Shown piece by piece: positions 27,742-53,648 of a stretch of 64,000 nucleotides of DNA. The DNA is from a virus (Duplodnaviria > Heunggongvirae > Uroviricota > Caudoviricetes). The stretch lies in the IMG/VR virus record IMGVR_UViG_3300005758_000044, positions 1 to 64,000 of that record. One strand, given 5' to 3'. Position 1 is the first letter of the stretch. Each line of letters begins with the position of its first letter. A program made the position numbers and the translations under genes. The notes below the pieces were generated by a model, which searched no databases, was not told the DNA's origin, and saw only the letters and a list, made by a program, of their open reading frames with translations.

Positions 27742-27935
27742 AATGGTGATGCGCTATAGTAAAAGCAATTTGCGCAGGGTTGGTACGCAGTTAGTATAAC
27801 ATGCAAACGCTGATTTGTCAAGGTTTTTATGGTTTTCCGCGTTATGGGTGGTTGGAGTTGGTTTCCGCGGCTGAAGGAACAAAGAGTATGTGGGTGCTTG
27901 ACTTTGTATAAAGGTATGGTAGAGTGTATGTAGAT

Positions 27936-28688
27936 ATGAGCGTATTGTTTTTCATCAAAGGAAATGCTAAGCTTGGTAAGGAGATTTACACGTTTTCGTT
28001 GCCTAGTGGTTTTACGTGTCCGGGAGCTGTGGAGTGTTTGAGTCGTGCTAATCGTGAGACTGGCAAGATTGTGGATGGAAAGCAGACATTGTTTCGGTGT
28101 TTTAGTGCTAGTCAGGAGACGTTGTATCCTGTTGTGAGGGTGCAGCGGTGGAAGAATTTTGATGCTTTGAGCAAGTTGAGTAGGAGTGAGATGGTTGTGT
28201 TGATAGCTAGTAATTTGCCAAAGAAGGCACGTATTGTTAGGGTGCATGTTGCTGGTGATTTTTTCAATGAGGACTATTTTTTGGCCTGGATGGATGTTGC
28301 TAGTATGTTTGGCAGTGTGGTATTTTATGCTTACACCAAGAGTGTTAATATGTGGGTAAAGCATATGGATAAGGTACCGCGTAACTTTGTATTGACGGCT
28401 AGTTTTGGTGGTCGGCATGACAATTTGATTGAGCAGCACAAGTTGAAGTATGCCAAGGTAGTTTACAGTGTTGAGCAAGCCAAAGAGCTTAATTTGGCTA
28501 TTGATCATGATGACACGCATGCTTATTTGACAAATGAGTCATTTGCATTGTTGTTGCATGGTACGCAACCCAAGCAAAGTGATGCTTCTGTTGCGTTGCA
28601 GAAGTTGAGAAAGCAGGGTATTGGTGGATATGGCAAGCAGAAGCAGAAGCGTATTGAAGCAAATACCGCGAACAAAACTGTTGAGTGA
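27936..28688 (+). CDS. phage GP88-like family protein (conserved CPG..C cysteines)
   Basis: MSVLFFIKGNAKLGKE...FTCPGAVEC; own early promoter TTGACTTTGTATAAAGG at 27895. Confidence 0.45.
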   Translation: MSVLFFIKGNAKLGKEIYTFSLPSGFTCPGAVECLSRANRETGKIVDGKQTLFRCFSASQETLYPVVRVQRWKNFDALSKLSRSEMVVLIASNLPKKARIVRVHVAGDFFNEDYFLAWMDVASMFGSVVFYAYTKSVNMWVKHMDKVPRNFVLTASFGGRHDNLIEQHKLKYAKVVYSVEQAKELNLAIDHDDTHAYLTNESFALLLHGTQPKQSDASVALQKLRKQGIGGYGKQKQKRIEANTANKTVE

Positions 28689-28691
28689 GGC

Positions 28692-28719
28692 TTGACTTTT
28701 TCTAAACATGGTATAAACT
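28692..28719 (+). promoter_or_regulatory. early promoter (TTGACT...TATAAACT) with CAA-rich leader
   Basis: cttgactttttctaaacatggtataaactg; near-identical copy at 29158. Confidence 0.6.
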
Positions 28720-28762
28720 GTATATACGGTAGCAACAACAACAACAACGAAAGAACGACGAT

Positions 28763-29107
28763 ATGAATATGAACGTCCGGGTTGAGACGAGTGAGGCTAA
28801 GAAGGTGACTGTGACGATTAGTCGTGAGGCGCTGTGGCATAACTTTGTGAACTGTTGGAGGGATTTGGCCTGGGATGAGTATCATGGTGTTGGACATTTG
28901 GAGGGTGTGGCCAAGGTGTTGCTGAGTGGTGAGAAGATGGATTTGTATACTCTGCGTAAGTTGTTTCGTGAGGGTAACACGATGTTGTTTATGGGTGACG
29001 CGATGGAGTTTCTGGATGTTCCTCGCAGTGTGAATCTGTGGCGTGAGATTGTGGTTGTGGATGGTGATGATCGGTATGTGATTAGTCACGAGCACATCAA
29101 CTTCTGA
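28763..29107 (+). CDS. hypothetical protein, paralogue of 35771-36109
   Basis: ~55% identity with the minus-strand ORF at 35771-36109 (VTVTISREALWHNFVNCWRDLAWDEY...). Confidence 0.6.
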   Translation: MNMNVRVETSEAKKVTVTISREALWHNFVNCWRDLAWDEYHGVGHLEGVAKVLLSGEKMDLYTLRKLFREGNTMLFMGDAMEFLDVPRSVNLWREIVVVDGDDRYVISHEHINF

Positions 29108-29116
29108 AGGATTTGG

Positions 29117-29147
29117 GGTTTGCGGTGATCCTGACTGACAAAACCGC
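29117..29147 (+). repeat. conserved upstream hairpin element (GGTTTGCGGTGATCC...AAAACCGC)
   Basis: stem GCGGT/ACCGC, loop begins GATCC, ends AAA; abuts -35. Confidence 0.6.
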
Positions 29148-29157
29148 TTGACTTTTT

Positions 29158-29185
29158 CTAAACTTGGTATAAACTGTATATACGG
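29158..29185 (+). promoter_or_regulatory. early promoter with CAA-rich leader
   Basis: duplicate of 28692 module. Confidence 0.6.
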
Positions 29186-29216
29186 TAGCAACAACAACAA
29201 CGAACAACGCATATAT

Positions 29217-29465
29217 ATGGGAACACGTAGCAACATTGGTATTCGTAATCTTGACAACACGATTACTGGTATTTACTGTCATTGGGATGGATATCCCGAG
29301 TGGAATGGAAAGATTTTGTTGGAGAATTACAATGATGTTGACAAGGTGAATGCTTTGATGGAGTTGGGTGATTTGTCGAGTTTGCGGATCAAGTTGAATC
29401 CTGAGCCTGGCAAGCCGCATACGTATGATGAGCAGCAGAACGATGTGTGTGGCATATGGACGTGA
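29217..29465 (+). CDS. hypothetical protein
   Basis: ATG after (CAA)n leader; possibly continues via frameshift into 29425-29640. Confidence 0.5.
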   Translation: MGTRSNIGIRNLDNTITGIYCHWDGYPEWNGKILLENYNDVDKVNALMELGDLSSLRIKLNPEPGKPHTYDEQQNDVCGIWT

Positions 29466-29640
29466 TCGAGGTGAGAAGGGAACGGAGAGCAAGTTGTTTA
29501 AGTCGTTGAGTCAGTTTGAGCGGTATATGGATAGTAATGGTGCTCAGTATCAGTATTTGTTTGACACTAATGTTGGCGAGTGGACGTATCGTGATTACAA
29601 GACTGACTGGAGGGTTTTGAAGTTGGAAGATTGTAAGTGA
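29425..29640 (+). CDS. hypothetical protein (overlaps previous in another frame; possible frameshifted continuation)
   Basis: 71-aa ORF with coding-like composition and no promoter of its own. Confidence 0.3.
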   Translation: MMSSRTMCVAYGRDRGEKGTESKLFKSLSQFERYMDSNGAQYQYLFDTNVGEWTYRDYKTDWRVLKLEDCK

Positions 29641-29695
29641 AGTCAAGGGTTTGTGGGCGACCGCGAACCCTTTTTTATGCATGTATATGGTTTTC

Positions 29696-29713
29696 CGCGG
29701 CTGGTTGGTGCAA
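29696..29713 (+). promoter_or_regulatory. ATGGTTTTCCGCGGCTGG motif
   Basis: one of ~15 copies of a conserved 18-mer containing CCGCGG. Confidence 0.5.
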
Positions 29714-29721: not shown

Positions 29722-29749
29722 TTGACTTTGTATAAAGTCATGATAGGAT
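29722..29749 (+). promoter_or_regulatory. early promoter
   Basis: cttgactttgtataaagtcatgataggat. Confidence 0.55.
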
Positions 29750-29758: not shown

Positions 29759-29941
29759 ATGGATGCTAAATTTTCGAGTGAAGGGTTACCGTTGTGTCCA
29801 CATTGTGAACAGCCTATGGATCATATGCGTCCCAAGGGGCGTGATACTGAGACGATGGGTGGATACAGTGTGGAGTATTTTATTTGTGAGTGTGATTGTG
29901 AATTTGAGCTAATTGATTCAAAAAGGTTGTATCCCGCTTGA
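29759..29941 (+). CDS. small Zn-ribbon protein
   Basis: CPHCEQP...CECDCEF. Confidence 0.5.
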   Translation: MDAKFSSEGLPLCPHCEQPMDHMRPKGRDTETMGGYSVEYFICECDCEFELIDSKRLYPA

Positions 29942-29966
29942 CTTTTTGTAAAAGGTTGGTAGAGTG
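29938..29966 (+). promoter_or_regulatory. early promoter
   Basis: cttgactttttgtaaaaggttggtagagt. Confidence 0.55.
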
Positions 29967-29974: not shown

Positions 29975-30151
29975 ATGAATCGAGACGATGAGCGTAAGGC
30001 GGTTGCTAGTTTGATTTACTTTTCGGATCATGTGACCAAGGATCGAGTGGAACAGTGGATTGAGAAGTTGAAGGAACAGGGTCATGTGGTTGCATCTGAT
30101 ACACGGGAATATGAACCTGCGTATGGCGAACCGTGTTGGTATATTCCTTGA
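29975..30151 (+). CDS. hypothetical protein
   Basis: 58 aa from first ATG. Confidence 0.45.
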   Translation: MNRDDERKAVASLIYFSDHVTKDRVEQWIEKLKEQGHVVASDTREYEPAYGEPCWYIP

Positions 30152-30176
30152 CTTTTTGTAAACCGGTGATATTCTG
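30148..30176 (+). promoter_or_regulatory. early promoter
   Basis: cttgactttttgtaaaccggtgatattct. Confidence 0.55.
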
Positions 30177-30827: not shown

Positions 30828-30856
30828 TTGACTTTTTGTAAACCGCTGGTATAGTC
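30828..30856 (+). promoter_or_regulatory. early promoter
   Basis: tttgactttttgtaaaccgctggtatagt 8 nt before helicase ATG. Confidence 0.55.
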
Positions 30857-30864: not shown

Positions 30865-32223
30865 ATGAAACTACTTGATCCTCAAATTCCTCATTCGGAG
30901 AACTTGCTCAACAGTCTTTATTTGAATGGCATTGCTGCTGATTTGAGTGAGACTGGATGTGGCAAGACGTATGTTGCTACGTATGTGGCAAAAACCATGA
31001 ATGTTCCTGTCGTGGTTATTTGTCCCAAGGCGGTGATTCCTGTTTGGAAGCGGGTTATGGCGAGTGCTGGTATTGGTGCCATGGTGTCGATCAACTATGA
31101 AAAGTTGATGCGTGGCAATACCAAGTATTTGACGTATGATGAAGCCAAGTTGAAGATTCCCAACACGCCGACGTGGCAGAGCATGATTGTGAATCTTCCC
31201 AAAAACTGTTTGATCATTTTGGATGAAGTTCACAAGTGTAAGGGTGCCAAGAGTTTGAATGGTGCTTTTCTTACAGCTTGTAAGTCATATGGCTACAAGT
31301 TGTTGGTGATGAGTGCTACTGCTGCTACCAATCCATTGGAGATGCGTCATTTTGGGTATGCTACCAATCTTCACAACTGGTTCAACTTCAACAAGTGGTG
31401 TGGCAATATTGGTGCTGAGTTTAATGCTCAGTATGGTGGCATGTCTATTGACATGAAGAGTCAGCGGGTGCAAGAAGGAATGAAGTGGATTCATGATCAA
31501 TTGTTCAATGTGCAGGGTATTGCCAGTCGATTGACGCGTGAACAGATGAAGGCTATGTTTCCGGACAATCGGGTGTTGGCCGAGTGTTTTGATATGGGAA
31601 CCAATACTGCCAAGATTCAGGCGGTATACGACCATATGGAGGCTGAGATTGCTCGATTGGATGAACGTTCCAAAGATTATCGTGCTCATGTGTTTGCGGA
31701 GATCATGAAGGCACGTCGTATGGCTGAAATCCTCAAGGTTCCTACTTTGGTCGAAATGATCGAAGATCTGTATGAAGAGGGTATCAGTCCGGTGGTGTTT
31801 GTGAACTTTGAAGACACCATGGCGGCATTGCAGAAGCGACTGGCGTCTTATGGAGACGTTGTTGGAGTGATCAAGGGTGGACAGAGTGCCAAGGAACGTC
31901 AGCTTCACATTGATGAATTTCAGGCCAATACCCGGCGAATTATGCTGGTGAACTTGGCTGCTGGCAATGCTGGTATCAGTCTTCATGATTTGGATGGCAA
32001 GTTTCCTCGACACAGCATTGTGTGTCCTTCGTTTAGTGCCATTAACTTGGTTCAAGCGTTGGGTCGAATTCATCGTGCTGAAGGCAAAAGTCCTTGTTTG
32101 CAGAAGATTGTGTTTGCTGCTGGAACGATTGAAGAGCGGTGCTGTCAACGTGTTCAATCAAAGCTTGACAATCTGGATATGTTGAATGACGGCGATTTGG
32201 TTGGTGACATCAAGATCTGGTGA
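30865..32223 (+). CDS. SF2 DNA helicase
   Basis: motif I LSETGCGKT, motif II ILDEVHK, motif VI QALGRIHRAEG. Confidence 0.8.
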   Translation: MKLLDPQIPHSENLLNSLYLNGIAADLSETGCGKTYVATYVAKTMNVPVVVICPKAVIPVWKRVMASAGIGAMVSINYEKLMRGNTKYLTYDEAKLKIPNTPTWQSMIVNLPKNCLIILDEVHKCKGAKSLNGAFLTACKSYGYKLLVMSATAATNPLEMRHFGYATNLHNWFNFNKWCGNIGAEFNAQYGGMSIDMKSQRVQEGMKWIHDQLFNVQGIASRLTREQMKAMFPDNRVLAECFDMGTNTAKIQAVYDHMEAEIARLDERSKDYRAHVFAEIMKARRMAEILKVPTLVEMIEDLYEEGISPVVFVNFEDTMAALQKRLASYGDVVGVIKGGQSAKERQLHIDEFQANTRRIMLVNLAAGNAGISLHDLDGKFPRHSIVCPSFSAINLVQALGRIHRAEGKSPCLQKIVFAAGTIEERCCQRVQSKLDNLDMLNDGDLVGDIKIW

Positions 32224-32243
32224 TGGTATAGTTTCTATAACCT

Positions 32244-32676: not shown

Positions 32677-33108
32677 ATGACTACTACATCTACTTATATT
32701 GTTGAAAGCGGTAATTGGAAGATACGAATTGTCGCTGAAGACTATGGAGATGAGTATTCATATTTGGAAGCCGCTACACGTGCCATAGAGGGTGTATTTG
32801 GTAGTAGGCCCCTAGGTGAAAAGTGTGAGTTTGTATGTTTGATGGATGCTAAGGGTCAAGACTATTTTGATCTTGATACCAATGTAGAAGAGTTGCCACC
32901 GCCAATGTTTAGTGTGGTGACTGGTGTTCGTAAGGAAAACGAAACAACGTTGCGTGTGTATCTAACCAGCCTTTTGTTTGCCAATGCTGGTCAACCAGTC
33001 AACTTCAAATTGGCAATGCAAGCAGAAGCTTTGGAACCGGATAAAGTCAAGTCATTCAAAGAGTTAGCGGCAAAAAAGTCCAACAAATCTAAAAAGAAAA
33101 AGAGTTGA
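32677..33108 (+). CDS. hypothetical protein
   Basis: start at ATG after the tRNA; Lys-rich tail. Confidence 0.5.
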   Translation: MTTTSTYIVESGNWKIRIVAEDYGDEYSYLEAATRAIEGVFGSRPLGEKCEFVCLMDAKGQDYFDLDTNVEELPPPMFSVVTGVRKENETTLRVYLTSLLFANAGQPVNFKLAMQAEALEPDKVKSFKELAAKKSNKSKKKKS

Positions 33109-33140
33109 CAAACTGATGTGTTGGTGGTAACGTATATATC

Positions 33141-33436: not shown

Positions 33437-33468
33437 CATAAAAAGACCCACCACATAGGGTGGGGTAT
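33437..33468 (-). terminator. rho-independent terminator
   Basis: cccacc-acatag-ggtggg with T-run on minus. Confidence 0.6.
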
Positions 33469-33610: not shown

Positions 33611-33943
33611 TTACTCGTCTACGGACTTATAGATGGGATCGCCCGCGGGATTATATCCGATAATCTCAACCTTACCTTCTTCGATCAAATTGTCAAGTTC
33701 CTGTTGAATCATTTGCTGTTTGGCAAACTCAACCAATTGTTCTTGACTCATATCGTTTTCTTGCATGAACTGCTGAATTTCTTGTGGCAGTTCATGATCT
33801 TCTGGATAATCTTGGTCAAAAACATCCACGTCGAGTGATGCACAGTGAGTCAACAATGCATCAATGGTTCCTGTAAAACTTCCTGTAATTCGATTGGTTT
33901 CTTTCATTGTACACAGCATACCACATTTTGTATACTGTGTCAA
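33611..33943 (-). CDS. hypothetical acidic protein
   Basis: 110-aa ORF. Confidence 0.45.
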   Translation of the reverse strand: MTQYTKCGMLCTMKETNRITGSFTGTIDALLTHCASLDVDVFDQDYPEDHELPQEIQQFMQENDMSQEQLVEFAKQQMIQQELDNLIEEGKVEIIGYNPAGDPIYKSVDE

Positions 33944-34389: not shown

Positions 34390-34508
34390 ATCTAGTGTAG
34401 TGTTACTGTTTTTGTTTTTGTTATCGGAAGAACTTGTGTCCTTCAACTGGAAATAGATTATCAGACATTTAGAGAAAGTCAAGCCTCGCTGTCATTTTCT
34501 GAAAGTTT

Positions 34509-34526: not shown

Positions 34527-35008
34527 TTGACATGAGTGCAAAGAAAAACGGAGACACCGGTTGGTTAGACCAATGTCTCCGTTTATTTTCAAAACCGACT
34601 TGCAAATCGGTTTCACAGGTAGTTTATCGGTTAGCTACACCAATATCAACTGTATGGATCTTTCTCCATTGTCATGAGCACGAACACTTCACTACTTTGA
34701 AGGTTAGGCCCATTCACGAACATGACCGGAGGTACGTTCACTACCTTGAAGTTTATCCGGTGTTACAACATGGCATATTTCTTCGCTACCTTGAAGACAT
34801 GTGCTGAACAACAATGGACGTGTCATTTTGGCTCTTACGGAGGCTCGGGAGTATTCAGTCTTTTCCACGTTCCGGAAAGTTTTAGTGTTACGCGTCACAC
34901 CATCACTTTCAAAATCTGAAACTACTTTATCACACTTTCTTGATTTGTCAAGCTACTCTCTTACATACCAGAGAGGGGCTTTTTGACCTGACCCCAAGGT
35001 GTTTGGCA

Positions 35009-35683: not shown

Positions 35684-35770
35684 ATGTAGTATCTATTACG
35701 GTTAAGAGTCTATCAGAGTTTTAGAGAAAGTCAATGGGTTTTTTAGGATTACCCACAACCTTTTGTTGGG

Positions 35771-36109: not shown

Positions 36110-36142
36110 TACACAATCAGATTATCAGAGTTTTAGAGAAAA

Positions 36143-36343
36143 TCAAGCCTTGTCTTCAATTTGAAGAAAATTAGCAATGTTGTTACGAATGATCTTGACA
36201 CACTCTTCCTGAGACAAACCTTCTTCAAATTGCATGTCACCGCTGATGTATCGGCCAAATTGTCCACCATCGGCAAACCAATTGGCGAACTTTTGAGACT
36301 CAAACAGCCACATCAACTTGGTGATCAACTCTTTGTTGTTCAT
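36143..36343 (-). CDS. hypothetical protein
   Basis: 66 aa with reverse early promoter at 36355. Confidence 0.45.
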   Translation of the reverse strand: MNNKELITKLMWLFESQKFANWFADGGQFGRYISGDMQFEEGLSQEECVKIIRNNIANFLQIEDKA

Positions 36344-36445
36344 TGTGGATATATCCTAACAGCTTTTTAGAGAAAGTCAAGCCTCACTTGATTTTCCGCG
36401 TATGAATGATTCACCAAAAAACCACCTTGTTACAGGTGGTTGAAA

Positions 36446-36803: not shown

Positions 36804-36836
36804 GTTGAAGATACTCTATCAGGGTTTTAGAGAAAG

Positions 36837-37355
36837 TCAAGCCGTCACCGCAACCATTGGAGTGATTTTCTGATAGCAGACGTTGCACCGATAGGTATGA
36901 GTTCCAGCCTGCATCCGACGAACACGGGTGACGGTGATTTGATGCTTTTTGCCTTGACAACCACACACATAGCCATAACGAGTAACGTTGCGAACACGTG
37001 CGTTGGTGACATCATAACTGTGACAACGAGTGGCAGGAACATTGAACCAACTCATTACTTGCTTCCAAACGTGGCCGTGACCCGTGCCTGGATTGTTCTT
37101 GAACACGGTGTATTGAACTACGTGTGCAAACTCATGAGGCACCGTTTGGTTGATCATGGTGTCAACATTTTCCATGAGCAACACTTTGTTGAGGCTGATG
37201 AACGGTTCTCCGAAACGAGTACCACCTCGACCAGCAGCCGTTCCTCGGAGGTTGTAGTCTAGCGTAGGAACCACTCGTTGACCAGTTTGTTGGAACACAA
37301 TGTCACTGCACTGGTTGATCTTGTCTTGAATCCGCTGATGAATCTCAATGTTCAT
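36837..37355 (-). CDS. SprT-like zinc metalloprotease
   Basis: HEFAHVV HExxH motif plus C-terminal Zn-ribbon CGCQG...CNVC. Confidence 0.6.
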   Translation of the reverse strand: MNIEIHQRIQDKINQCSDIVFQQTGQRVVPTLDYNLRGTAAGRGGTRFGEPFISLNKVLLMENVDTMINQTVPHEFAHVVQYTVFKNNPGTGHGHVWKQVMSWFNVPATRCHSYDVTNARVRNVTRYGYVCGCQGKKHQITVTRVRRMQAGTHTYRCNVCYQKITPMVAVTA

Positions 37356-37402
37356 GTTGAAGAAACAATATCAGAGTTTTAGAGAAAGTCAAGCCGTCAT
37401 TG

Positions 37403-37609: not shown

Positions 37610-37643
37610 ATACAGATGTTATCACCTTTTTAGAGAAAGTCAA

Positions 37644-38020: not shown

Positions 38021-38044
38021 AGTTTTGTGTAGTATCTGTTGTTG

Positions 38045-38074: not shown

Positions 38075-38094
38075 TATCAGAGTTTGTTTGAAAG

Positions 38095-43915: not shown

Positions 43916-43956
43916 GGCTTGACTTTTTCTAAAGTTGTGAGATACTTATTTCAATA

Positions 43957-44076: not shown

Positions 44077-44082
44077 AACACA

Positions 44083-44111
44083 AGAGGAACGTCAGTTCCT
44101 CTTTTTTTTGT
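44083..44111 (+). terminator. rho-independent terminator
   Basis: agaggaac-gtca-gttcctct + TTTTTTTT. Confidence 0.8.
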
Positions 44112-44285: not shown

Positions 44286-44326
44286 AGTATAAAAAGTCGC
44301 TTGACGTTTTGTGAAAGTGTGGTAGA

Positions 44327-44584
44327 TTGATCTTCGTTATGACACTTCAACAGTTTCAAGATGCTTTCGCAATCGCCAAAGATTTCAACCGTGATTTGTC
44401 GGAGGTGGATAACAGCATTCTGTTTGGATATGGTTTGCCCGAGTTCAAGCCGGTGCATACGACGTTGGAAGCAGTTGCGAAGACCATCAGATGGCAAGCG
44501 CTTCAATTCAACGGGCAATGGGATTCTGAGGCTTTGAATGAGATTGCTGAACTGGGAAGACGCAACTTCTTGGTGTTGGGTTGA
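44327..44584 (+). CDS. hypothetical protein
   Basis: 85 aa. Confidence 0.5.
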   Translation: MIFVMTLQQFQDAFAIAKDFNRDLSEVDNSILFGYGLPEFKPVHTTLEAVAKTIRWQALQFNGQWDSEALNEIAELGRRNFLVLG

Positions 44585-44619: not shown

Positions 44620-44656
44620 TTGACTTTTTCAACAAATCGAATACAGTAGTTGAACA

Positions 44657-44860
44657 ATGATACTTTCCACAGCAAAGTACGAAGCAGAGTGCTGGGCGAC
44701 TGGTAAAACGAATGAGGAATTGCAAGAAGAAATCAACTACCTAGATTCGCTGTGGTCAATGAAACATCCTAATCCGTTTCCCAAAAACGCCCAGCACTCC
44801 TATTCACGACTGTATACTCTTCAAGAAATTCTCAAAAGCCGGTTGACTTCTTCTAAATAA
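44657..44860 (+). CDS. hypothetical protein
   Basis: 67 aa. Confidence 0.5.
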   Translation: MILSTAKYEAECWATGKTNEELQEEINYLDSLWSMKHPNPFPKNAQHSYSRLYTLQEILKSRLTSSK

Positions 44861-44891
44861 TCACTAGACTAACAACAACAATAATACATAA

Positions 44892-45116: not shown

Positions 45117-45167
45117 CACTTGACTTTCTCTAAAACTCAGTTAGACTAACGTCCACAACAATAAATT

Positions 45168-45572
45168 ATGCCTAAGAACAAGAATCACAAGGAACGTATC
45201 ACCCTCGACGACAGTATGATGGATGTCGTCATGAAGATGGCTGACGGCAATCCGGGTGCACTCACAGTTATCACGCGGTTGATTTCTGACAAGAATGATC
45301 CCGACGATTGGGCTGGCGGATTTGGTAAACTGCTGAGTCTCGACTCCCACGGCATCTATGGTTCCAACATTTGGGTGTTGTTCAAGAACGTGTGTGACCA
45401 GAGCATCTTGAATGTGGTGACTGTGCTTCGGGCAGTTCAGCTGGGACTTTACTCTGAACGTGATCTGTGGAATTGTATTGACAACTGCACTCCATTGGAC
45501 TGTGAACGGCTGCTGTCAAGTGTTCGTAAGGAACTGCCTCGATTTGGTAATGCTGAATCACAGACCGCTTGA
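45168..45572 (+). CDS. hypothetical protein
   Basis: 134 aa. Confidence 0.5.
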   Translation: MPKNKNHKERITLDDSMMDVVMKMADGNPGALTVITRLISDKNDPDDWAGGFGKLLSLDSHGIYGSNIWVLFKNVCDQSILNVVTVLRAVQLGLYSERDLWNCIDNCTPLDCERLLSSVRKELPRFGNAESQTA

Positions 45573-45605
45573 CATTTCAAGAAAGTCTGATACTCTGTAT
45601 TCACA

Positions 45606-45836
45606 ATGAATATGTTTCTTGCTTACATTCACAACAACGTCCTTGGTACATGTATCGCTTGTGCAGACGAATCACACGCCTTGGAATTGGTCAAGGATCG
45701 ATTTAAGTTTGTCATTGGCCGTGACATGACGGAGAGTGAAGTTGCTGAGTTTGTAAACGATGGAACGATTTATAACGATGAAGACCACGATAATTTCCAC
45801 AGCTGGTCTATCGGACTGGTCGAAAATTGGGGTTGA
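45606..45836 (+). CDS. hypothetical protein
   Basis: 76 aa. Confidence 0.5.
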   Translation: MNMFLAYIHNNVLGTCIACADESHALELVKDRFKFVIGRDMTESEVAEFVNDGTIYNDEDHDNFHSWSIGLVENWG

Positions 45837-45901
45837 CTTTCTTCAAAACAACTAGTAAAGTAACAAAGTAATCGAAGTAACAACGTAATCGAACTAAAAT
45901 T

Positions 45902-46321: not shown

Positions 46322-46448
46322 TTACAAGACAACAAGATGCCCACATGGACGAAAGTCTGTGTGGGTTTTTTGTTTGCAGTCAACAACACCGCGGAAAAAA
46401 ACAAGTGGGGCTTGACTTTTGCCAAAAATGTGAGAAACTGTTTTCACA

Positions 46449-46580
46449 ATGAACGACGAAATCATGTTTCTTGCTACGGTGACGGTTGAAGAACTGGAAG
46501 GATATGATCAGTATCTTGCTGAGTTGGAAGCGAAGCAGGATTTGGACATGATGCTCAATCAAATGGCTGGTGAGGCTTGA
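46449..46580 (+). CDS. small acidic protein (~43 aa)
   Basis: hand-translated MNDEIMFLATVTVEELEGYDQYLAELEAK...; own promoter. Confidence 0.3.
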   Translation: MNDEIMFLATVTVEELEGYDQYLAELEAKQDLDMMLNQMAGEA

Positions 46581-46613
46581 CTTTCTGTAAAACTTTGATA
46601 AATTATTGACCAC

Positions 46614-47032: not shown

Positions 47033-47085
47033 CGATGTATGATGGGGCTTGACTTTTTCTAAAAAAAGTGTAGATTATATACACA

Positions 47086-47307
47086 ATGACTCCCGCTGAA
47101 GAATTAAATTCGATCTACGAACGCATTGGTGATGGCGAACCAATCACCGATGAATTGAGCGAACGAATTGAACTGCTGGAGAACATTGTCAATCCGAAGG
47201 TTGTTTATCGGTGTGAACCAGTTGAACCGGAAGGTTGTGGTTGCGATCATCCAAGTTATTGTTGGGACTGTGCAGCAATCCGTGGTGGTTGTCCGGAAGA
47301 TGCTTGA
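47086..47307 (+). CDS. small Cys-rich protein
   Basis: CEPVEPEGCGCDHPSYCWDC. Confidence 0.5.
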   Translation: MTPAEELNSIYERIGDGEPITDELSERIELLENIVNPKVVYRCEPVEPEGCGCDHPSYCWDCAAIRGGCPEDA

Positions 47308-47340
47308 CTTTCTCTAAACTCCTGATAACCTTTACTCACA

Positions 47341-47770: not shown

Positions 47771-47811
47771 TTGACTTTCTTCAATTGTCTGTTATCTTGA
47801 AATCACAACAT

Positions 47812-48189: not shown

Positions 48190-48263
48190 CCGCTGAAGAA
48201 GCCTTGGGGTGAGGATAAAAAGCCCCTTGACTTTCTGTAAAGTTCTGACATACTGATTTCACG

Positions 48264-48452
48264 ATGAAACACGAAAAGTGGGTTGATGTCAACGGAGTTA
48301 CAGTCTACGAAACCGGCCGTCGCAGTTCCAAATTAGGTATCAACAAAGTGTTTCTCACCCGTGGTGAATTGATCGCCACAAAAGTGTTGTTGTCAGGCAC
48401 CGTAACCAAATACGGTACAACATTTATCGCTCCTTTCAAAAAGATTGTTTGA
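48264..48452 (+). CDS. hypothetical protein
   Basis: 62 aa. Confidence 0.5.
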   Translation: MKHEKWVDVNGVTVYETGRRSSKLGINKVFLTRGELIATKVLLSGTVTKYGTTFIAPFKKIV

Positions 48453-48485
48453 CTTTCTCTAAACTGCTGATAGGATAGTTCCACA

Positions 48486-48644
48486 ATGATTAAGATTACA
48501 TTCACTGATTCGTCAACTGTTGTTGTCAAGCGAGTTGTTTTTTATCTTGTATACGGACGACCGGTGATTGGTGTTATCTACAATGATGGTGATGAACCGA
48601 TTGTGCAATGTGTTGAAGAAGTGGAAAGTATTGAAGCTGCTTGA
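48486..48644 (+). CDS. small protein (~52 aa)
   Basis: hand-translated; own promoter. Confidence 0.3.
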   Translation: MIKITFTDSSTVVVKRVVFYLVYGRPVIGVIYNDGDEPIVQCVEEVESIEAA

Positions 48645-48677
48645 CATTCTCTAAATTGCTGATACACTGTATCCACA

Positions 48678-48905: not shown

Positions 48906-48946
48906 TTGACTTTCGATAAAACTGTGATACATTGATTTCAGATTTC

Positions 48947-49800: not shown

Positions 49801-49854
49801 AATCCTGAAACTTGCTATTGACTTTCTCTAAAACTCTGATAAGGTAGATTCACA

Positions 49855-50013: not shown

Positions 50014-50221
50014 AAAGTTGTTGACTTCATGATCTTTCGTTGGTACAGACAATGGAAATGTAGTCGTGGAAACCACGAATTGGTGTCTGGTTATGTGCCT
50101 ACCAACAACCCTTTGGCACTAGATCGTGAAGTCAAGTGTGTGCATTGTTCATTCAAAAAAATCGTTGGTAGACAATACTTCTTCGATTGACTTTCAGTAA
50201 ACCACTGATAGGATAATCATC

Positions 50222-50720: not shown

Positions 50721-50758
50721 TTGACTTTCAGTAAACCACTGATAGGATATTCGCACAA

Positions 50759-50917: not shown

Positions 50918-51085
50918 TTTCAATTGACTGGTGGCGAAACGGCAAACGCACGGAGGCATCCGATTCTCCAATGTTGTATGTCGGCAGACAGAAGCATTGG
51001 CATTGCACGAATGAAGGTTCAAATCCTTCCCAGTCAACCATTTTCCGTTTGACATTTTCTAAAACCCTGATAACCTATTGTTGTT

Positions 51086-51508: not shown

Positions 51509-51580
51509 GCTGCCCACCAGCCGCTTTTGTCGCCGGATGCCACTTGACTTTCTCTAAAACCGATATACACTGTACCCACA

Positions 51581-51838: not shown

Positions 51839-51893
51839 TTCAGTTCAAAAATCCGGTTGACTTTCTCTAAAACTTCGGTAACCTAGTCTCCTA

Positions 51894-52109
51894 ATGAATA
51901 ACGAACTGATCGCTAAGGCCCTCAAGAAGTTCCCCAAGGCCAAAAAGATCGCAGTCGAAAACTTCACCATGGGCTACAACGAACTGTCTATGGAAGCTTC
52001 CATGAACCTCGAAATGGATGCCTCACTCTACAAGTGGAACGCACACACCACCAACGCCATTCGTTACGTGCTACAACACAAACACGCATTCAAAACCATG
52101 GCAGACTAA
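51894..52109 (+). CDS. hypothetical protein
   Basis: 71 aa. Confidence 0.5.
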   Translation: MNNELIAKALKKFPKAKKIAVENFTMGYNELSMEASMNLEMDASLYKWNAHTTNAIRYVLQHKHAFKTMAD

Positions 52110-52136
52110 CACACAATCGGTTGTGGGTGATCCGTC
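52110..52136 (+). repeat. upstream hairpin element variant (GGGT/ACCC stem)
   Basis: GGTTGTGGGTGATCCGTCAAAACCC. Confidence 0.5.
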
Positions 52137-52307
52137 AAAACCCTCAACAACACCACTACAAATAGTAGTGTCGCGACAATAAGAACTGCTATTCAATCAA
52201 AAACACCTCGCTACGTCAACCACATAATGGTTTTCCGCGCCTGGTGTTGCTGCTTTTTATAGAAAGTTCTTGTGTTTGCCACTCTGCCGGTATAGAGTAT
52301 TGCCACG

Positions 52308-52625
52308 ATGAACGACACCGTGACACCCTTTGTTCCCACCCGCTTTGTTCCCACCCGTGACGATCTGATCGGCTACATCTCCGATATCTACAAGGAAATC
52401 AATGGGTTTCGTCCTCGCCCCGACTGGTCCATGCTCACTTACGAGGAGCTTGACAAGTGGGGTCGTGAGTTGTCCGCCGAAGCCATCCTCCACCGTAAGC
52501 AACAGGTGCAATGGGCCCGCCTGGCCCGCAAACTACGTCGTGCTCGTCAACGGGCTTGGGTGCAAAAGAAACGCACCTACTTCACACCCGTCACCTTCAC
52601 ACTGGGCATGCTAATGCCCACCTAA
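52308..52625 (+). CDS. hypothetical Arg-rich protein (GC-rich)
   Basis: 105 aa. Confidence 0.5.
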   Translation: MNDTVTPFVPTRFVPTRDDLIGYISDIYKEINGFRPRPDWSMLTYEELDKWGRELSAEAILHRKQQVQWARLARKLRRARQRAWVQKKRTYFTPVTFTLGMLMPT

Positions 52626-52664
52626 ACCACCGGGAGCTGTCAAGCTCCCTTTTTCACTATTGCC

Positions 52665-52682
52665 ATGGTTTTCCGCGGCTGG
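52665..52682 (+). promoter_or_regulatory. ATGGTTTTCCGCGGCTGG motif copy
   Basis: exact consensus. Confidence 0.5.
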
Positions 52683-52689
52683 TTGATGC

Positions 52690-52720
52690 ATAAAAAGACC
52701 CGGATTTTACTCCGGGTTGT
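52690..52720 (-). terminator. rho-independent terminator
   Basis: gacccgga-ttttac-tccgggt with T-run on minus. Confidence 0.65.
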
Positions 52721-52727
52721 CAATCTT

Positions 52728-53238
52728 TTACTTGGCAAAGTTCAACTTCCTGAACTTGATGGCACGAATCGAATCCATCTTGAGAGTGATAACCGGCTGC
52801 TTGAAGTCACCCCAATCCTTCTCAGGAATAAAGGCCTTCATCTTGGTAACTTCCTCCTCAGTCAGCTCCCGACCATTCAGAACATACTTGGTTCCCTTGG
52901 TCCGATGAGGAAAGAACTGAAGGTATTTCTGGTCCGGGTTCTTCTTGGAAAAACACAGCGGAGTGACCTTGCCATCGTTGGTGGTCTCATGCAGATACCA
53001 CGTCTCGCCACCCTCGTAGTTCGCCTCAACACCAGCCTCCTTCATCCGACGATTCACTCGAGCCTCATGGTTCACATTCACCAAACCATTGCGCCGGGTA
53101 ACCTTCACAGCACCCACAAAAGGATTGCCAGTCTTGCGCATCTTCACTTCGGTCTCAGTCTCGAGCGTCACAAACTGACACTCAGTGCCGAGAATACGGA
53201 GGAAGGTAACCAATTCGCTGTTGTCTTTGATAGTGATC
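52728..53238 (-). CDS. hypothetical protein
   Basis: track ORF trimmed; no in-frame ATG after the promoter region so GTG start assumed. Confidence 0.4.
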
Positions 53239-53463
53239 GTCTTCACGGGTAAAAGACTACCAGATGATGTCCATCTTTCAACAAATAAAAGCCGCCGGGT
53301 GCCACATAAATGCCTTGACATATACCACCACCCACCAATCCCCATACACATCCATATCACCTTGTCAATACCTTTCTTCAGTTTCCGCGTATGCTCAAAC
53401 ATACACTTTGTTCAAAATATGCCTTGTATATACGCCAACACCTGATACTCTGTTCTCCGACAT

Positions 53464-53638
53464 GAATAAGAACATCGTCCGCTACAACGTCACCAAAAAC
53501 CTCCAAACTCCCATGAACCTCCGCATCAGCCTCGACACTCGCCTTCGCCGCTCTCATGTCACCCGTGTCGCCCGTGACTACGCACATCTTCGTGAATCCA
53601 TGGGTGACCTCACTGTCAAGAACTGGGACAACCTCTAA
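53464..53638 (+). CDS. small protein (~58 aa)
   Basis: MNKNIVRYNV...; promoter with TGATACTCT -10. Confidence 0.35.
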
Positions 53639-53648
53639 CATCACAATC

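Follow-up and report, generated by a model that had tools for sequence, protein, structure and literature searches.

A dense array of near-identical extended -10 promoters ahead of Shine-Dalgarno-free genes with mostly leaderless predicted transcripts in a probable jumbo phage

Introduction

Thermus phages phiYS40 and Lalka27a rank among the closest precedents for a promoter-adjacent leaderless gene design: most of their transcripts are leaderless and arise at promoters of the sigmaA type, some of them TGx-extended (bioRxiv 10.64898/2026.04.20.719267). In Deinococcus-Thermus the -10 element sits 6-7 bp ahead of ORFs (PMC12340547), and true leaderless genes show a typical spacing of 6-7(8) nt (PMC12340547, PMC6028130). 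The PeSL cassettes of T4 are another of the closest precedents. Isolated examples, and a few Thermus phages of this kind, are already known, but the scale of the array described here, with ~50 near-identical promoters, is beyond those. The array was found in a 64-kb stretch of viral DNA (the window), which probably derives from an uncultured freshwater jumbo phage (~300 kb).

Results and Discussion

The window was scanned with a position-weight matrix (PWM) made from seed matches, using a cut-off of 10 bits. This revealed 52 copies of the consensus cTTGACTTTCTcTAAAAc-N2-TGaTAnnnT above 10 bits, whereas 20 shuffles yielded 0-2 copies each (~0.4 per shuffle), bearing out the motif array that an earlier note had proposed. 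Likewise, TTGACT-N13-TGnTAnnnT with at most one mismatch was matched 49 times versus 2.2 expected, a count equalled in 0 of 100 shuffles, and CTTGACTTT had 29 matches in the window versus 0.74 expected. The geometry was as previously described, with a near-consensus -35 TTGACT(TT), an inter-hexamer spacer of 16 nt and a TG-extended -10, TGaTAnnnT. Within 27,898-51,884, where 49 of the 52 PWM matches fall, the motif lies on the plus strand at 27.9-33.3 kb, on the minus strand at 33.4-40.2 kb and again on the plus strand at 40.9-51.9 kb, in line with the strands given before, and all 49 copies share the local coding strand. The earlier note had spoken of ~40 units reaching to 53.64 kb. The array is real, but its count is instead ~49 family promoters plus ~7 other sigma70-like promoters, and its end lies near 52.1-52.6 kb. 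No family promoter was found by the PWM scan in 52.7-54.0 kb, which reads as coding on the minus strand, judging by its ORFs, its GC skew and a terminator on that strand. The region 27.9-52.6 kb holds ~60 small genes, ~53 of them with a promoter directly upstream; 46 are preceded by family copies. Promoter coordinates below run from -35 to -10, bit scores are from the PWM scan, and the GP88-like and helicase assignments are from Pfam.

Family promoters in the array:
27898..27925, +, 30.6 bits, 10 nt to ATG 27936 (250 aa, GP88-like)
28692..28719, +, 26.0 bits, 43-nt CAA leader, ATG 28763 (114 aa)
29148..29175, +, 26.8 bits, 41-nt CAA leader, ATG 29217 (82 aa)
29722..29749, +, 29.1 bits, 9 nt to ATG 29759 (60 aa)
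29938..29965, +, 35.7 bits, 9 nt to ATG 29975 (58 aa), TGA is upstream gene stop
30148..30175, +, 34.4 bits, 10 nt to ATG 30186 (60 aa), TGA is upstream stop
30828..30855, +, 33.1 bits, 9 nt to ATG 30865 (452 aa, helicase)
34455..34482, -, 39.0 bits, 65-nt A/C-rich leader, ATG 34389 (131 aa)
34924..34951, -, 15.9 bits, no downstream ORF
35707..35734, -, 40.5 bits, 23-nt leader, ATG 35683 (224 aa)
36119..36146, -, 38.5 bits, 9 nt to ATG 36109 (112 aa)
36353..36380, -, 35.8 bits, 9 nt to ATG 36343 (66 aa)
36813..36840, -, 43.9 bits, 9 nt to ATG 36803 (91 aa)
37365..37392, -, 41.9 bits, 9 nt to ATG 37355 (172 aa, SprT-like)
37616..37643, -, 36.7 bits, 6 nt to ATG 37609 (68 aa)
38071..38098, -, 29.6 bits, 50-nt ACAA leader, ATG 38020 (111 aa)
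38467..38494, -, 32.4 bits, 9 nt to ATG 38457 (120 aa, DUF6915)
38674..38701, -, 21.0 bits, 9 nt to ATG 38664 (53 aa)
39016..39043, -, 28.3 bits, no downstream ORF
39209..39236, -, 30.3 bits, 8 nt to ATG 39200 (56 aa)
39454..39481, -, 33.0 bits, 7 nt to ATG 39446 (69 aa)
40147..40174, -, 39.5 bits, 61-nt A-rich leader, ATG 40085 (170 aa)
41543..41570, +, 31.9 bits, 9 nt to ATG 41580 (75 aa)
42069..42096, +, 23.5 bits, 6 nt to ATG 42103 (94 aa)
42586..42613, +, 31.5 bits, 9 nt to ATG 42623 (80 aa)
42862..42889, +, 40.7 bits, 8 nt to ATG 42898 (83 aa), TGA is upstream stop
43186..43213, +, 32.3 bits, 7 nt to ATG 43221 (88 aa)
43592..43619, +, 35.0 bits, 8 nt to ATG 43628 (95 aa)
43919..43946, +, 33.4 bits, 9 nt to ATG 43956 (39 aa)
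44301..44328, +, 28.4 bits, 10 nt to ATG 44339 (81 aa)
44620..44647, +, 18.9 bits, 9 nt to ATG 44657 (67 aa)
44843..44870, +, weak, 10.2 bits, 21-nt CAA leader, ATG 44892 (74 aa)
45120..45147, +, 34.5 bits, 20-nt leader, ATG 45168 (134 aa)
45569..45596, +, 25.6 bits, 9 nt to ATG 45606 (76 aa), TGA is upstream stop
46412..46439, +, 30.1 bits, 9 nt to ATG 46449 (43 aa)
46577..46604, +, 38.7 bits, 9 nt to ATG 46614 (119 aa), TGA is upstream stop
47049..47076, +, 19.9 bits, 9 nt to ATG 47086 (73 aa)
47304..47331, +, 38.8 bits, 9 nt to ATG 47341 (129 aa), TGA is upstream stop
47771..47798, +, 18.5 bits, 13 nt to ATG 47812 (125 aa)
48227..48254, +, 32.7 bits, 9 nt to ATG 48264 (62 aa)
48449..48476, +, 34.7 bits, 9 nt to ATG 48486 (52 aa), TGA is upstream stop
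48641..48668, +, 36.0 bits, 9 nt to ATG 48678 (75 aa), TGA is upstream stop
48906..48933, +, 29.9 bits, drives tRNA-Lys(UUU) 48947-49021, beginning 13 nt past -10
49818..49845, +, 38.0 bits, 9 nt to ATG 49855 (52 aa)
50187..50214, +, 32.2 bits, 7 nt to ATG 50222 (78 aa), TGA is upstream stop
50721..50748, +, 29.3 bits, 9 nt to ATG 50758 (52 aa)
51049..51076, +, 34.7 bits, 9 nt to ATG 51086 (115 aa)
51544..51571, +, 27.8 bits, 9 nt to ATG 51581 (85 aa)
51857..51884, +, 33.8 bits, 9 nt to ATG 51894 (71 aa), final array copy

Variant with a spacer one base longer:
45833..45861, +, 40-nt A-rich leader, ATG 45902 (139 aa)

Other sigma70-like promoters:
32204..32232, +, GTGACA-N17-TG-TATAGT, 11 nt to ATG 32244
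33105..33133, +, TTGACA, TGgTAACGT, 7 nt to ATG 33141
33915..33943, -, TTGACA, TGgTATGCT, 7 nt to ATG 33907
40861..40888, +, TTGAAA-N16-TAGACT, 6 nt to ATG 40895
41274..41302, +, TTGACG, TGaTATAGT, 6 nt to ATG 41309
42384..42412, +, TTGACA-N17-TAAACT, 8 nt to ATG 42421

Family promoters outside the array:
2111..2138, -, 24.3 bits, 6 nt to ATG 2104 (DNA ligase, 382 aa)
7274..7301, -, 29.1 bits, 35-nt A-rich leader (7239-7273), ATG 7238 (211 aa)

The sequence supports a reading of the family promoters as sigma70-type extended -10 promoters, and their information content is highest at the sigma70 contact positions (TTGAC, TG, TA...T). Three copies lack a downstream ORF; since one of these drives tRNA-Lys and the two others precede ORF-free DNA, the motif is a transcription signal rather than a translation signal. 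The same promoter and spacing were found in related metagenomic phage contigs with a helicase 50-58% identical, two of these contigs being about 296-304 kb, and the design recurs in 33 metagenomic stretches and IMG/VR contigs, with a 9-10 nt spacing in 105 of 188 matches. The spacer of the family promoter contains a conserved T-rich tract followed by AAAA, and this consensus persists when copies are selected on the -35, the -10 and the ATG alone. As a point against the explanation favoured below, conservation of TTCTcTAAAA, at ~0.4-1.4 bits per position, exceeds the known need of sigma70 alone; a co-factor from the phage or the host may be involved, or else a sigma factor encoded by the phage.

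The distance from -10 to ATG in the array copies is 9 nt in 26 cases, 10, 8 and 7 nt in three each, 6 nt in two and 13 nt in one. Altogether, an ATG lies 6-10 nt past the -10 in 37 of 49 array copies versus 3.4% of random positions (p=1.7e-44; mode 9 nt), and between the upstream stop and each promoter-linked ATG there is no other in-frame ATG. The window copies conserve C and A at positions 6 and 7 past the -10, respectively. In the spacing-9 class of other contigs (54 of 144 collected instances) these have frequencies of 0.78 and 0.63, and the 10-nt class has C-G one base later. The conserved C-A places the predicted start 3 nt ahead of the AUG, and the sequence supports the view that most transcripts should begin 0-4 nt before it. 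The tight spacing proposed earlier (ATG at 7-10 nt, starts at 0-3 nt) is here 6-10 nt and 0-4 nt. Of the 46 promoter-linked genes, 25 have AAN as their second codon versus 11% in the background (p=2e-12), and 37 have A at +4. Against a fully leaderless reading, the dominant 9-nt spacing is 2-3 nt longer than the 6-7(8) nt usual for true leaderless genes (PMC12340547, PMC6028130); most mRNAs would then carry a 3-nt leader, and their translatability would be host-dependent.

Shine-Dalgarno (SD) sequences were not enriched at the 126 ORF starts in the window, as the earlier note had stated: anti-SD pairing with dG<=-4.4 occurred at 9.5% versus 14.8% of random windows, and a core SD 4-mer at 5.6% versus 6.1%. 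The sequence thus supports translation signals without SD. Promoter-adjacent, SD-less starts occur across the whole window, beyond 27.9-53.6 kb, and the feature is therefore not confined to 27890-53640 as had been proposed. The sequence further supports unstructured A/C-rich leaders in a minority of genes. Nine array genes and one gene at 7.2 kb have G-poor leaders of 20-65 nt (pooled composition A 51%, G 12%; MFE 0 in 7 of 10). The CAA/ACAA leaders reported before were present, and four more were added: 34390-34454(-), 40086-40146(-), 35684-35706(-) and 7239-7273(-).

SD-less leaders:
28720..28762, +, CAA-repeat, MFE 0 for predicted transcribed part
29176..29216, +, CAA-repeat, MFE 0 for predicted transcribed part
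34390..34454, -, A/C-rich
38021..38070, -, ACAA-type, MFE 0 for predicted transcribed part
40086..40146, -, A-rich with CTAACAA repeats
45862..45901, +, A-rich

The array had also been described as single-gene transcription units. This was not borne out, as only ~8-10 convincing intrinsic terminators were present for ~60 genes. Moreover, the upstream stop lies within 10 nt of the next -35 at 23 of 47 junctions, and at 12 of those 23 it is the TGA within TTGACT. With few terminators and with stops at or inside the -35, read-through and nested transcripts with shared 3' ends are to be expected.

Intrinsic terminators and associated tRNA:
29645..29672, +, 12-bp stem, then T run
33447..33464, strand not assigned, hairpin at convergent junction, likely bidirectional terminator
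34546..34584, -, 16-bp stem
36420..36441, -, terminator past tRNA-Met
36446-36521, tRNA-Met, downstream of the 36813..36840 (-) promoter, ahead of the terminator
39531..39552, -, terminator
44082..44103, +, 9-bp stem, T8
46339..46366, +, 12-bp stem
52632..52649, +, terminator closing the plus-strand array

Other genes in the window have a second motif, gATATTTAT, 4-14 nt ahead of their ATG. This -10-like motif probably marks a late class requiring a phage factor.

Second-class motifs:
13595..13602, +, ATATTTAT, 5 nt to ATG 13608 (collagen-repeat protein, 538 aa)
15613..15620, -, 4 nt to ATG 15608 (116 aa)
23235..23242, -, 7 nt to ATG 23227 (481 aa)
26410..26417, -, 7 nt to ATG 26402 (244 aa)
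57444..57451, -, 6 nt to ATG 57437 (280 aa)

The region 27.9-52.6 kb is probably an early host-takeover region, "early" because its promoters are of this type, its ORFs are small and a second promoter class exists elsewhere. As an overall explanation we favour, with reasonable though incomplete confidence, repeated strong housekeeping-sigma promoters that direct leaderless, SD-free early genes on nested transcripts and within recombining cassettes. Transcription by host RNA polymerase carrying the primary sigma factor would start at the conserved purine 7-8 nt past the -10 and leave 0-4 nt ahead of the AUG, so that the commonest mRNA start would be 5'-ANN-AUG. Ribosome initiation would be set by the 5' end and not by an SD, as on leaderless mRNA, and the A-rich second codon would aid it. 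Since downstream cistrons on read-through RNA lack an SD, each gene would need its own promoter, which would explain the density of one promoter per gene; since terminators are few, the transcripts would be nested, with 3' ends in common. Some nine early genes would instead use SD-independent leadered initiation via their 20-65 nt A/C-rich, G-poor, unstructured leaders. The earlier proposal on the host gains support from sequence and comparison, in that the host, or the cell once infected, has to be able to translate mRNAs that are leaderless and mRNAs that lack an SD. Weighing against the overall explanation, no well-studied bacterial group pairs abundant leaderless mRNAs with leadered ones that lack an SD: in Actinobacteria and Deinococcota leadered genes carry an SD, and in cyanobacteria leaderless mRNAs are scarce (PMC6028130, PMC6091082, PMC3160421).

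The favoured explanation would also have the repeated promoters double as homology patches, through which recombination shuffles, inserts and deletes promoter-gene cassettes, with the initiation mode largely kept between orthologues. Leaderless versus leadered mode was concordant in 69 of 87 orthologue pairs, and gene order among related contigs was mosaic and shuffled. Comparison with a variant of 96% identity showed two indels, each of which takes out precisely one cassette of promoter (with leader) and gene, and direct repeats of promoter and leader flank one of the two.

An extended -10 promoter motif recurs before the small genes of a probable early region

Searching the window for TTGACT-N13-TGnTAnnnT with at most one mismatch returned 49 copies, against a mean of 2.2 in dinucleotide-preserving shuffles (0 of 100 shuffles reached 49), and CTTGACTTT matched 29 times where 0.74 matches were expected. 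A weight matrix (PWM) derived from 43 seed copies had the consensus aanaccGC-TTGACT-TTCTcTAAAActc-TGATAnacT-nttttcAnn-ATG-AAn. When its promoter part alone (-2 to +27) was scanned across the window at a cut-off of 10 bits, 52 matches were obtained, compared with 0-2 in each of 20 block shuffles. The recurrence of a motif before small genes, put forward in the earlier note together with the proposal of a position-weight scan, was thereby confirmed. Forty-nine of the 52 matches lay within 27,898-51,884, and every one of these 49 family promoters was oriented with the local genes, on the plus strand up to 33.3 kb, on the minus strand from 33.4 to 40.2 kb and on the plus strand again from 40.9 kb. 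The right end of the array had been placed too far downstream, at 53,640: the last copy serves the gene at 51894-52109, and a plus-strand terminator follows at 52632-52649. The stretch from 52.7 to 54.0 kb reads as minus-strand coding DNA, judging by its ORFs, its GC skew and a terminator on that strand (52717-52698).

Family promoters outside the array
2138, minus strand: family promoter before the DNA ligase gene
4804, minus strand: weak family promoter, from the PWM scan
7301, minus strand: family promoter, from the PWM scan

The -35 element (TTGACT, near TTGACA) had T, T, G, A and C each at a frequency of 0.90-0.97. The hexamers were 16 bp apart in all 49 family copies (17 bp in six other promoters), and in the extended -10 the frequencies were 0.83 and 0.97 for the TG, 0.90 and 0.97 for the TA and 0.97 for the last T. 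The family thus combines the features of a primary-sigma extended -10 promoter, namely a -35, a spacing of 17 +/- 1 bp, TG plus TAnnnT and a pyrimidine-purine start context. Information was highest at exactly the positions contacted by sigma regions 4, 3 and 2; variation was free at spacer positions 16-18 and at the three unspecified bases of the -10.

Unexpectedly, the spacer was conserved as well (TTCTcTAAAA, about 0.4-1.4 bits per position), and it was kept as TTGACTTT...AAAA in diverged relatives whose promoters had been picked by TTGAC, TGnTAnnnT and a nearby ATG only. Furthermore, when 50,697 phage records were searched by blastn for the 46-nt consensus, single matches at chance level were all that appeared; no cultured phage among them carries the motif, so that the host cannot be read from the promoter. 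These observations would suit a promoter read by a phage-modified polymerase, equipped with a phage sigma70-family factor or a spacer-binding accessory protein, as would the existence of a second promoter class, which implies that the phage reprograms transcription in any case; the motif would then tell less about the host's own sigma factor. We consider this unlikely, however, since the -35, TG, -10 and 16-nt spacing have textbook primary-sigma geometry, and since transcription of the first phage genes after infection depends on a polymerase present beforehand. In addition, no sigma-factor or RNA-polymerase family was among the Pfam matches listed for the window ORFs (top families of two pooled scans), and spacers that are T-rich and then carry an A-tract are common in strong phage promoters, such as those of SPO1 and T5.

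Two other assignments of the motif were rejected. An archaeal virus, with the conserved TCTAAAA ~25 nt before the AUG as TATA box, was rejected, as the TTGAC/TG/TA...T geometry and the Rfam and ARAGORN tRNA calls suit a bacterial system. A Bacteroidota-type promoter (-7 TAnnTTTG, -33 TTTG) was considered solely because A-rich starts lacking a Shine-Dalgarno (SD) sequence resemble that phylum. By eye, both the early motif and the second-class motif gATATTTAT misfit TAnnTTTG, and the classical sigma70 type of the promoters (-35, TG, -10) led us to reject a Bacteroidota host.

Most family promoters abut the start codon

The curated early region comprises 60 genes, about 75% of which are promoter-adjacent, while leaders serve about 15%.

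Start modes of the 60 curated early genes
38 genes: family promoter within 13 nt of the ATG
8 genes: family promoter plus leader
1 gene (ATG 45902): leader with a variant promoter, spacer one base longer
6 genes: other sigma70-like promoter, -10 at 6-11 nt
1 gene: TAnnnT alone
about 6 genes: no recognisable promoter, one of them overlapping its upstream neighbour by ATGA

Distances were counted between the final T of the -10 and the first following ATG that opens an ORF of at least 30 codons, ATG being the only start accepted.

Distance from -10 to ATG, family promoters
6 nt: 2 copies
7 nt: 3 copies
8 nt: 3 copies
9 nt: 26 copies
10 nt: 3 copies
13 nt: 1 copy
20-65 nt: 8 copies
no ORF downstream: 3 copies

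An ATG thus lay 6-10 nt after the -10 in 37 of 49 copies, compared with 3.4% of random positions in the region (p=1.7e-44). The distance was 6-8 nt in 8 of the 49 and 9-10 nt in 29, the latter predicting a leader of 2-4 nt. All 49 promoter-linked starts were ATG, which is partly by construction as the scan took ATG only. The linked ATG was always the first in-frame ATG after an upstream in-frame stop, and this stop was usually inside the promoter. The second codon was AAN in 25 of 46 genes, against 11% of internal codons (p=2e-12), with A at +4 in 37 of 46; because this context is non-random, the promoter-linked ATGs are taken as real starts.

In bacteria, transcription usually starts at a pyrimidine-purine pair 7-8 nt after the -10. 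The window copies had C (0.59) at position 6 and A (0.61) at position 7, and among 54 independent copies with 9-nt spacing on other contigs the frequencies were 0.78 and 0.63. In the 10-nt class of those contigs the conserved pair was C-G, one base later. Phage Lalka27a 5′ ends map 6 nt downstream of TAnnnT (bioRxiv 10.64898/2026.04.20.719267). With the conserved C-A/C-G pair at the bacterial start position, the predicted mRNA of most genes would begin 5′-(A/G)NN-AUG, and in the 6-nt class (2104, 37609, 42103, plus 40895 and 41309) the A of the AUG would itself be the first base. Starts 0-3 nt before the AUG had been expected initially, in agreement with this prediction. The modal 9-nt spacing exceeds the 6-7 bp of Deinococcus by 2-3 nt and also lies beyond the 6-8 nt of M. 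tuberculosis (PMC12340547, PMC6028130); transcripts with leaders of <=5 nt or <10 nt are often still called leaderless (PMC8244752: <10 nt). Transcript-derived contigs ending at start sites were looked for, and DNA contigs only were found.

Several copies argue for a promoter acting at the DNA level. One (48906-48933) sits 13 nt before tRNA-Lys, two family promoters and a related copy at 49226 precede ORF-free DNA, the leadered genes have intact family promoters 20-65 nt from the ATG, and the first gene after each divergent switch carries a family promoter (27898, plus; 40174, minus). These copies bear on another reading, in which the 45-nt element acts in the RNA as an SD-independent ribosome landing or standby site for each cistron of polycistronic RNAs made from few upstream promoters. 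Such an element would be in keeping with the scarcity of terminators and the tight junctions, which put the motif into read-through RNAs, with its U/A-rich, G-poor composition resembling S1-binding enhancers, and with the general absence of SD sequences. Its conserved positions, however, are sigma contacts in double-stranded DNA, and the motif also stands before tRNA-Lys and ORF-free stretches and at divergent switches, where no transcription from upstream in the same direction is expected. Moreover, in 9-10 units a leader of 20-65 nt separates the intact motif from the ATG, so that no fixed RNA distance to the AUG is required. We therefore hold an RNA element to be quite improbable and keep to a DNA promoter.

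The promoters before ORF-free DNA and the tRNA-Lys promoter have TTTCAG(A/T)T directly after the -10.

Promoters before ORF-free DNA
34924-34951, minus strand: family promoter
39016-39043, minus strand: family promoter
49226-49800, plus strand: related copy and the ORF-free DNA after it

For the ORF-free stretch of ~550 nt at 49255-49800, Rfam gave no match and the fold z-score was only -0.29. Such stretches may be phage non-coding RNAs or decayed genes.

Starts lack Shine-Dalgarno sequences and some carry A/C-rich leaders

Pairing of positions -20 to -1 with the anti-SD at dG<=-4.4 was seen for 9.5% of 126 non-overlapping ORF starts in the whole window, compared with 14.8% of random windows and 21% of sites upstream of internal ATGs. 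Likewise, GGAG, GAGG or AGGA occurred at 5.6% of ORF starts against a background of 6.1%. The ORF set includes some spurious ORFs, which dilute a signal but cannot produce depletion. The absence of SD sequences from the window, as originally noticed, was thus upheld. On the contig flanking the window on the left (L148), genes are tightly packed with 1-5 nt gaps or overlaps and, by eye, no clear SD, several having merely GGAA/AGGA-like stretches before the ATG; this packing suggests translational coupling.

Ten leaders of 20-65 nt consisted of 51% A, 19% C, 12% G and 18% T, and the predicted minimum free energy was 0 in 7 of the 10. The positions first given for six CAA leaders proved right to within about 10-30 nt, and four more were found.

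Further leaders
7239-7273, minus strand: leader
34390-34454, minus strand: leader
35684-35706, minus strand: leader
40086-40146, minus strand: leader

Few terminators separate the promoters

Terminators were sought with a consensus scan of the coding strand.

Terminators of the early region
29645-29672, plus strand: intrinsic terminator
33447-33464: hairpin at the convergent junction
34584-34546, minus strand: intrinsic terminator
36441-36420, minus strand: intrinsic terminator
38566-38548, minus strand: weak terminator
39552-39531, minus strand: intrinsic terminator
44082-44103, plus strand: intrinsic terminator
46339-46366, plus strand: intrinsic terminator
52632-52649, plus strand: intrinsic terminator

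Between 46,366 and 52,632, about 20 promoters have one terminator between them. At 12 junctions the stop of the upstream gene is the TGA of TTGACT, and at 11 more it lies 0-10 nt before the -35, giving 23 of 47 junctions at <=10 nt. Single-gene transcription units, as first proposed, are therefore not supported: with ~8-10 terminators and stops in or near the -35, read-through is expected, giving nested RNAs with common 3′ ends. Internal AUGs on such RNAs would be without SD, and initiation dependent on a 5′ end would need one promoter per gene. We infer that this requirement underlies the promoter density.

The promoter is kept in relatives whose genes are shuffled

The window corresponds to JGI contig Ga0102977_1006737 at 100% identity over the 21.4-kb locus compared, variants 95-99% identical occur in several other samples, and window proteins recur on contigs sized 0.2-1 Mb. 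No cultured phage matched in a megablast search with 8 kb, and tblastn of three large ORFs gave no match or matches at <=35% identity only. Helicase relatives 50-58% identical, on the IMG/VR contigs 3300037042_006844 and 3300023179_004209 (296-304 kb), have the same promoter type and spacing; those <=42% identical have neither the motif nor SD enrichment. The exact 24-nt form of the motif retrieved 33 metagenomic stretches and a 17-mer several IMG/VR contigs, and of 188 PWM matches in these sequences 72 were at 9 nt and 33 at 10 nt.

Genes common to relatives have 67-80% DNA identity in different order and orientation. Since differing spacings defeat ungapped upstream alignment, orthologues were compared by concordance of start-mode class, which was found in 69 of 87 pairs (mean protein identity 60%), 44 being promoter-adjacent in both members and 25 in neither. 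Leadered orthologues keep A/C-rich leaders of unrelated sequence. Relative to a 96%-identical variant contig (L002), the window has two extra cassettes.

Extra cassettes relative to L002
28763-29107: promoter, CAA leader and gene, flanked by direct repeats of promoter and leader
29759-29941: promoter and gene

The high uniformity of the copies within the genome, and the position of indel and gene-order-mosaic breakpoints at the repeats, could be taken to mean that the repeats are mainly a selfish or recombinogenic cassette, recently duplicated, whose promoter look is of little consequence. This can hardly be credited, though, as the motif is kept in relatives with coding DNA 67-80% identical, with proteins about 60% identical or with unrelated genes, its variation is position-specific (free at the nnn of the -10 and spacer 16-18), and orientation and ATG distance are strictly kept. 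Recombination and promoter function can, moreover, coexist.

Two local differences from L002 were also seen. At window 32586-32670 (L002 11722-12543), tRNA-Arg(UCU) is exchanged for a different tRNA-like sequence and an opposite-strand 248-aa gene; our guess is a homing-endonuclease-like insertion, the DUF559 and RAP Pfam matches being only faint. The overlapping plus-strand ORFs 29217-29465 and 29425-29640 appear to match one 141-aa gene of L002; the gene may be frameshifted or a pseudogene in the window, or the window may be misassembled here.

A probable second promoter class lies before genes outside the array

ATATTTAT occurs 17 times in the window, compared with 4.2 expected, and gATATTTAT lies 4-14 nt before ATGs of genes, mostly larger ones, outside the early array, as well as before one internal ATG.

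Second-class motifs
8878-8885, minus strand: before ATG 8863
12675-12682, minus strand: before ATG 12661
13595-13602, plus strand: before ATG 13608
15613-15620, minus strand: before ATG 15608
23235-23242, minus strand: before ATG 23227
24614-24621, minus strand: before internal ATG 24606
26410-26417, minus strand: before ATG 26402
54981-54988, plus strand: before ATG 55001
57444-57451, minus strand: before ATG 57437

Two relatives, L009 (32% GC) and the more distant L142, show the same arrangement. With its -10-like core and no -35, gATATTTAT is probably a late, -10-only promoter class that would also give leaderless or near-leaderless mRNAs; it resembles late promoters dependent on a phage factor. 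Perhaps by coincidence, the T4 late box TATAAATA reads as TATTTATA on the opposite strand. Other genes outside the array, at 9948, 16893, 20666 and 27268 (minus strand) and at 56099 (plus strand), have ordinary sigma70-like promoters located 6-9 nt ahead of the ATG.

A further element, (at)GGTTTTCCGCGGCTG(g), is found repeatedly between genes and has CCGCGG as its palindromic core.

Copies of the CCGCGG-core motif
27862, 29692, 34514, 47020 and 52670, plus strand: (at)GGTTTTCCGCGGCTG(g)
39510 and 46397, minus strand: (at)GGTTTTCCGCGGCTG(g)
27834, 32578, 33429, 36393, 41281, 41923 and 52232: looser copies

Several copies follow a terminator (often then TTTTTATGCA) and precede the -35 of the next promoter by about 15-40 nt; the motif is a possible candidate for a regulator-binding site. 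GC skew is very strong and tracks the coding strand (24000-30000, 52000-56000); at the divergent junction near 27.5 kb it changes from -0.40 to +0.38, and the coding strand is rich in G and T.

Comparison with known systems

According to Sevostyanova et al. 2007, as cited in bioRxiv 10.64898/2026.04.20.719267, most transcripts of phages phiYS40 and Lalka27a are leaderless and have host sigmaA-type promoters. The window shares with these Thermus phages sigmaA-type promoters (TTGACA, TAnnnT, some TGx-extended in the Thermus phages) directly before ORFs, and their separate late promoter consensus, suggesting a phage factor, has its counterpart in the second class. Their transcripts, however, begin with the A or G of the start codon itself, whereas our modal spacing predicts a 3-nt leader, and the Deinococcota hosts have SD on leadered genes, unlike the window. 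Promoter density is also much higher in the window (about one per 0.45 kb), and its phage, apparently a freshwater jumbo phage of roughly 300 kb, has no detectable relationship to phiYS40 or Lalka27a. In Deinococcus-Thermus and Actinobacteria, TAnnnT a few bp before the start is the promoter of leaderless mRNAs, and expression of such -10-adjacent genes rises when a -35 is added at 17 bp (PMC12340547; PMC6028130, GeneMarkS-2 group C; PMC3160421). There the motif is 6-8 bp upstream, usually without -35, in about 20-45% of genes, the others using SD, whereas the window has a full -35, TG and -10, a mode of 9 bp, about 75% of early genes and no SD class.

In the promoter-early stem-loop (PeSL) cassettes of T4-type phages, early-promoter repeats flank small ORFs of unknown function in hyperplastic regions, as in the window (PMC2839356, PMC4122927). 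In both, the breakpoints of indels and swaps among related phages coincide with the repeats, here in the two L002 cassette indels and the mosaic order. A PeSL is, however, a composite of terminator and promoter, while the window repeat has no stem-loop and abuts the start codon, with 8-10 terminators only, and T4 early mRNAs have leaders with SD, unlike those predicted here. Among the window genes, none was recognised as a T4-type structural or replication core gene, and the helicase has no close phage relative. More generally, small host-takeover genes of T4, T5 and SPO1 are preceded by strong primary-sigma promoters, which number in the tens and have an extended -10 or a -35 of the TTGACT(T) type. 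The mRNAs of those arrays have normal SD leaders, which sets them apart from the window.

SD-independent, S1-dependent initiation occurs in cyanobacteria (Mutsuda and Sugiura 2006, as cited in PMC6028130). Like known CA-rich SD-independent enhancers, the window leaders are A/C-rich, G-poor and structure-free before the AUG, and an enhancer function is putative here. The cultured freshwater cyanophage S-EIVl (L146, KJ410740.1) has its own repeated upstream motif, CCnAAGCATGACAnTAAACTGCT, followed by leaders of roughly 20-30 nt; these are C/A-rich, G-poor and SD-less like those of the window, but the promoter is different. Two jumbo phages with mapped starts were considered as precedents, and neither is leaderless: phiKZ has no leaderless transcripts, and AR9 has UTRs of 26-491 nt. 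Leaderless sigmaA phage transcripts, -10-adjacent ORFs and promoter-repeat gene shuffling are hence already known, from Thermus phages, from Deinococcus-Thermus and Actinobacteria, and from T4-type phages. New are how large and uniform the array is, the 3-nt leader that it predicts, the complete lack of an SD class, the stop within the -35, the conserved spacer and the widespread uncultured jumbo-phage family.

Host and gene content

As a possible reading, held with considerable reserve, we propose a freshwater family of ~300-kb jumbo phages whose whole expression would do without SD, through quasi-monocistronic 5′-ANN-AUG early mRNAs and later promoters abutting the AUG. Every functional step proposed for the array is deduced from the sequence. 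On the reading above, the host would be either a major lake bacterial lineage whose ribosomes prefer near-5′ and SD-less AUGs, a combination so far described for haloarchaea and for no bacterial group, or a cell that the phage switches to leaderless-type initiation as a takeover strategy, in which case one promoter per gene would be a necessity. If the start sites were confirmed, no natural set of promoter-adjacent SD-free genes in a bacterial virus would be larger or more uniform. Its about 50 near-isogenic promoter-AUG units, varying naturally in spacing (6-13 nt) and leader type, would form a ready allelic series for the AUG-to-5′-end distance needed for translation and would explain how 5′-end-dependent initiation can force per-gene promoters. 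In addition, motif and spacing would be a signature by which to recognise the phage family and narrow its host, SD-based gene callers would mis-start genes in such genomes, and PeSL-like promoter-mediated gene shuffling would extend beyond T4-type phages.

Indications of the host point in two directions. A nucleotide-sugar epimerase 57% identical to those of P-SSM2 and other cyanomyoviruses, a GP88-like protein 43% identical to that of freshwater Synechococcus phages and the C/A-rich SD-less leaders of S-EIVl point to cyanophages. The helicase, DUF6915 and GP88 families, found mostly in actinophages, point to actinophages, as do leaderless mRNAs, which Actinobacteria and Deinococcota make often and cyanobacteria rarely. 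We know of no well-described bacterial group that combines frequent leaderless mRNAs with SD-less leadered ones. A helicase scan of GTDB genomes found only relatives of 37-40% identity, binned in Verrucomicrobia/Opitutae MAGs and without the motif, and a search for homologues of the pyrophosphatase yielded no taxonomy. Several of the phage tRNAs read A-ending codons (AGA, AAA, ACA, possibly AUA), which is compatible with a host of higher GC content.

Twelve tRNA genes were observed, at 57953-63695 and at 32590, 36446 and 48947. The two that were read, the CAU and Lys tRNAs, encode CCA; the CAU tRNA has G1:C72 and is therefore an elongator Met or Ile2 tRNA, not an initiator. An early 115-aa protein (51086-51433, plus strand) contains 35 residues resembling the helices with which the C-terminal domain of ribosomal protein L7/L12 binds factors. 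The match is weak (Pfam E=8.6e-6; PDB chains E=0.01), but it is suggestive in a phage with unusual translation signals. Finally, window 1-27000 and the left flank carry cargo unusual for a phage: inorganic pyrophosphatase, PAS-domain, SET-domain, SPFH/Band-7 and collagen-repeat proteins, a SemiSWEET-like transporter, glycosyl- and methyltransferases, and NAMPT plus NUDIX.
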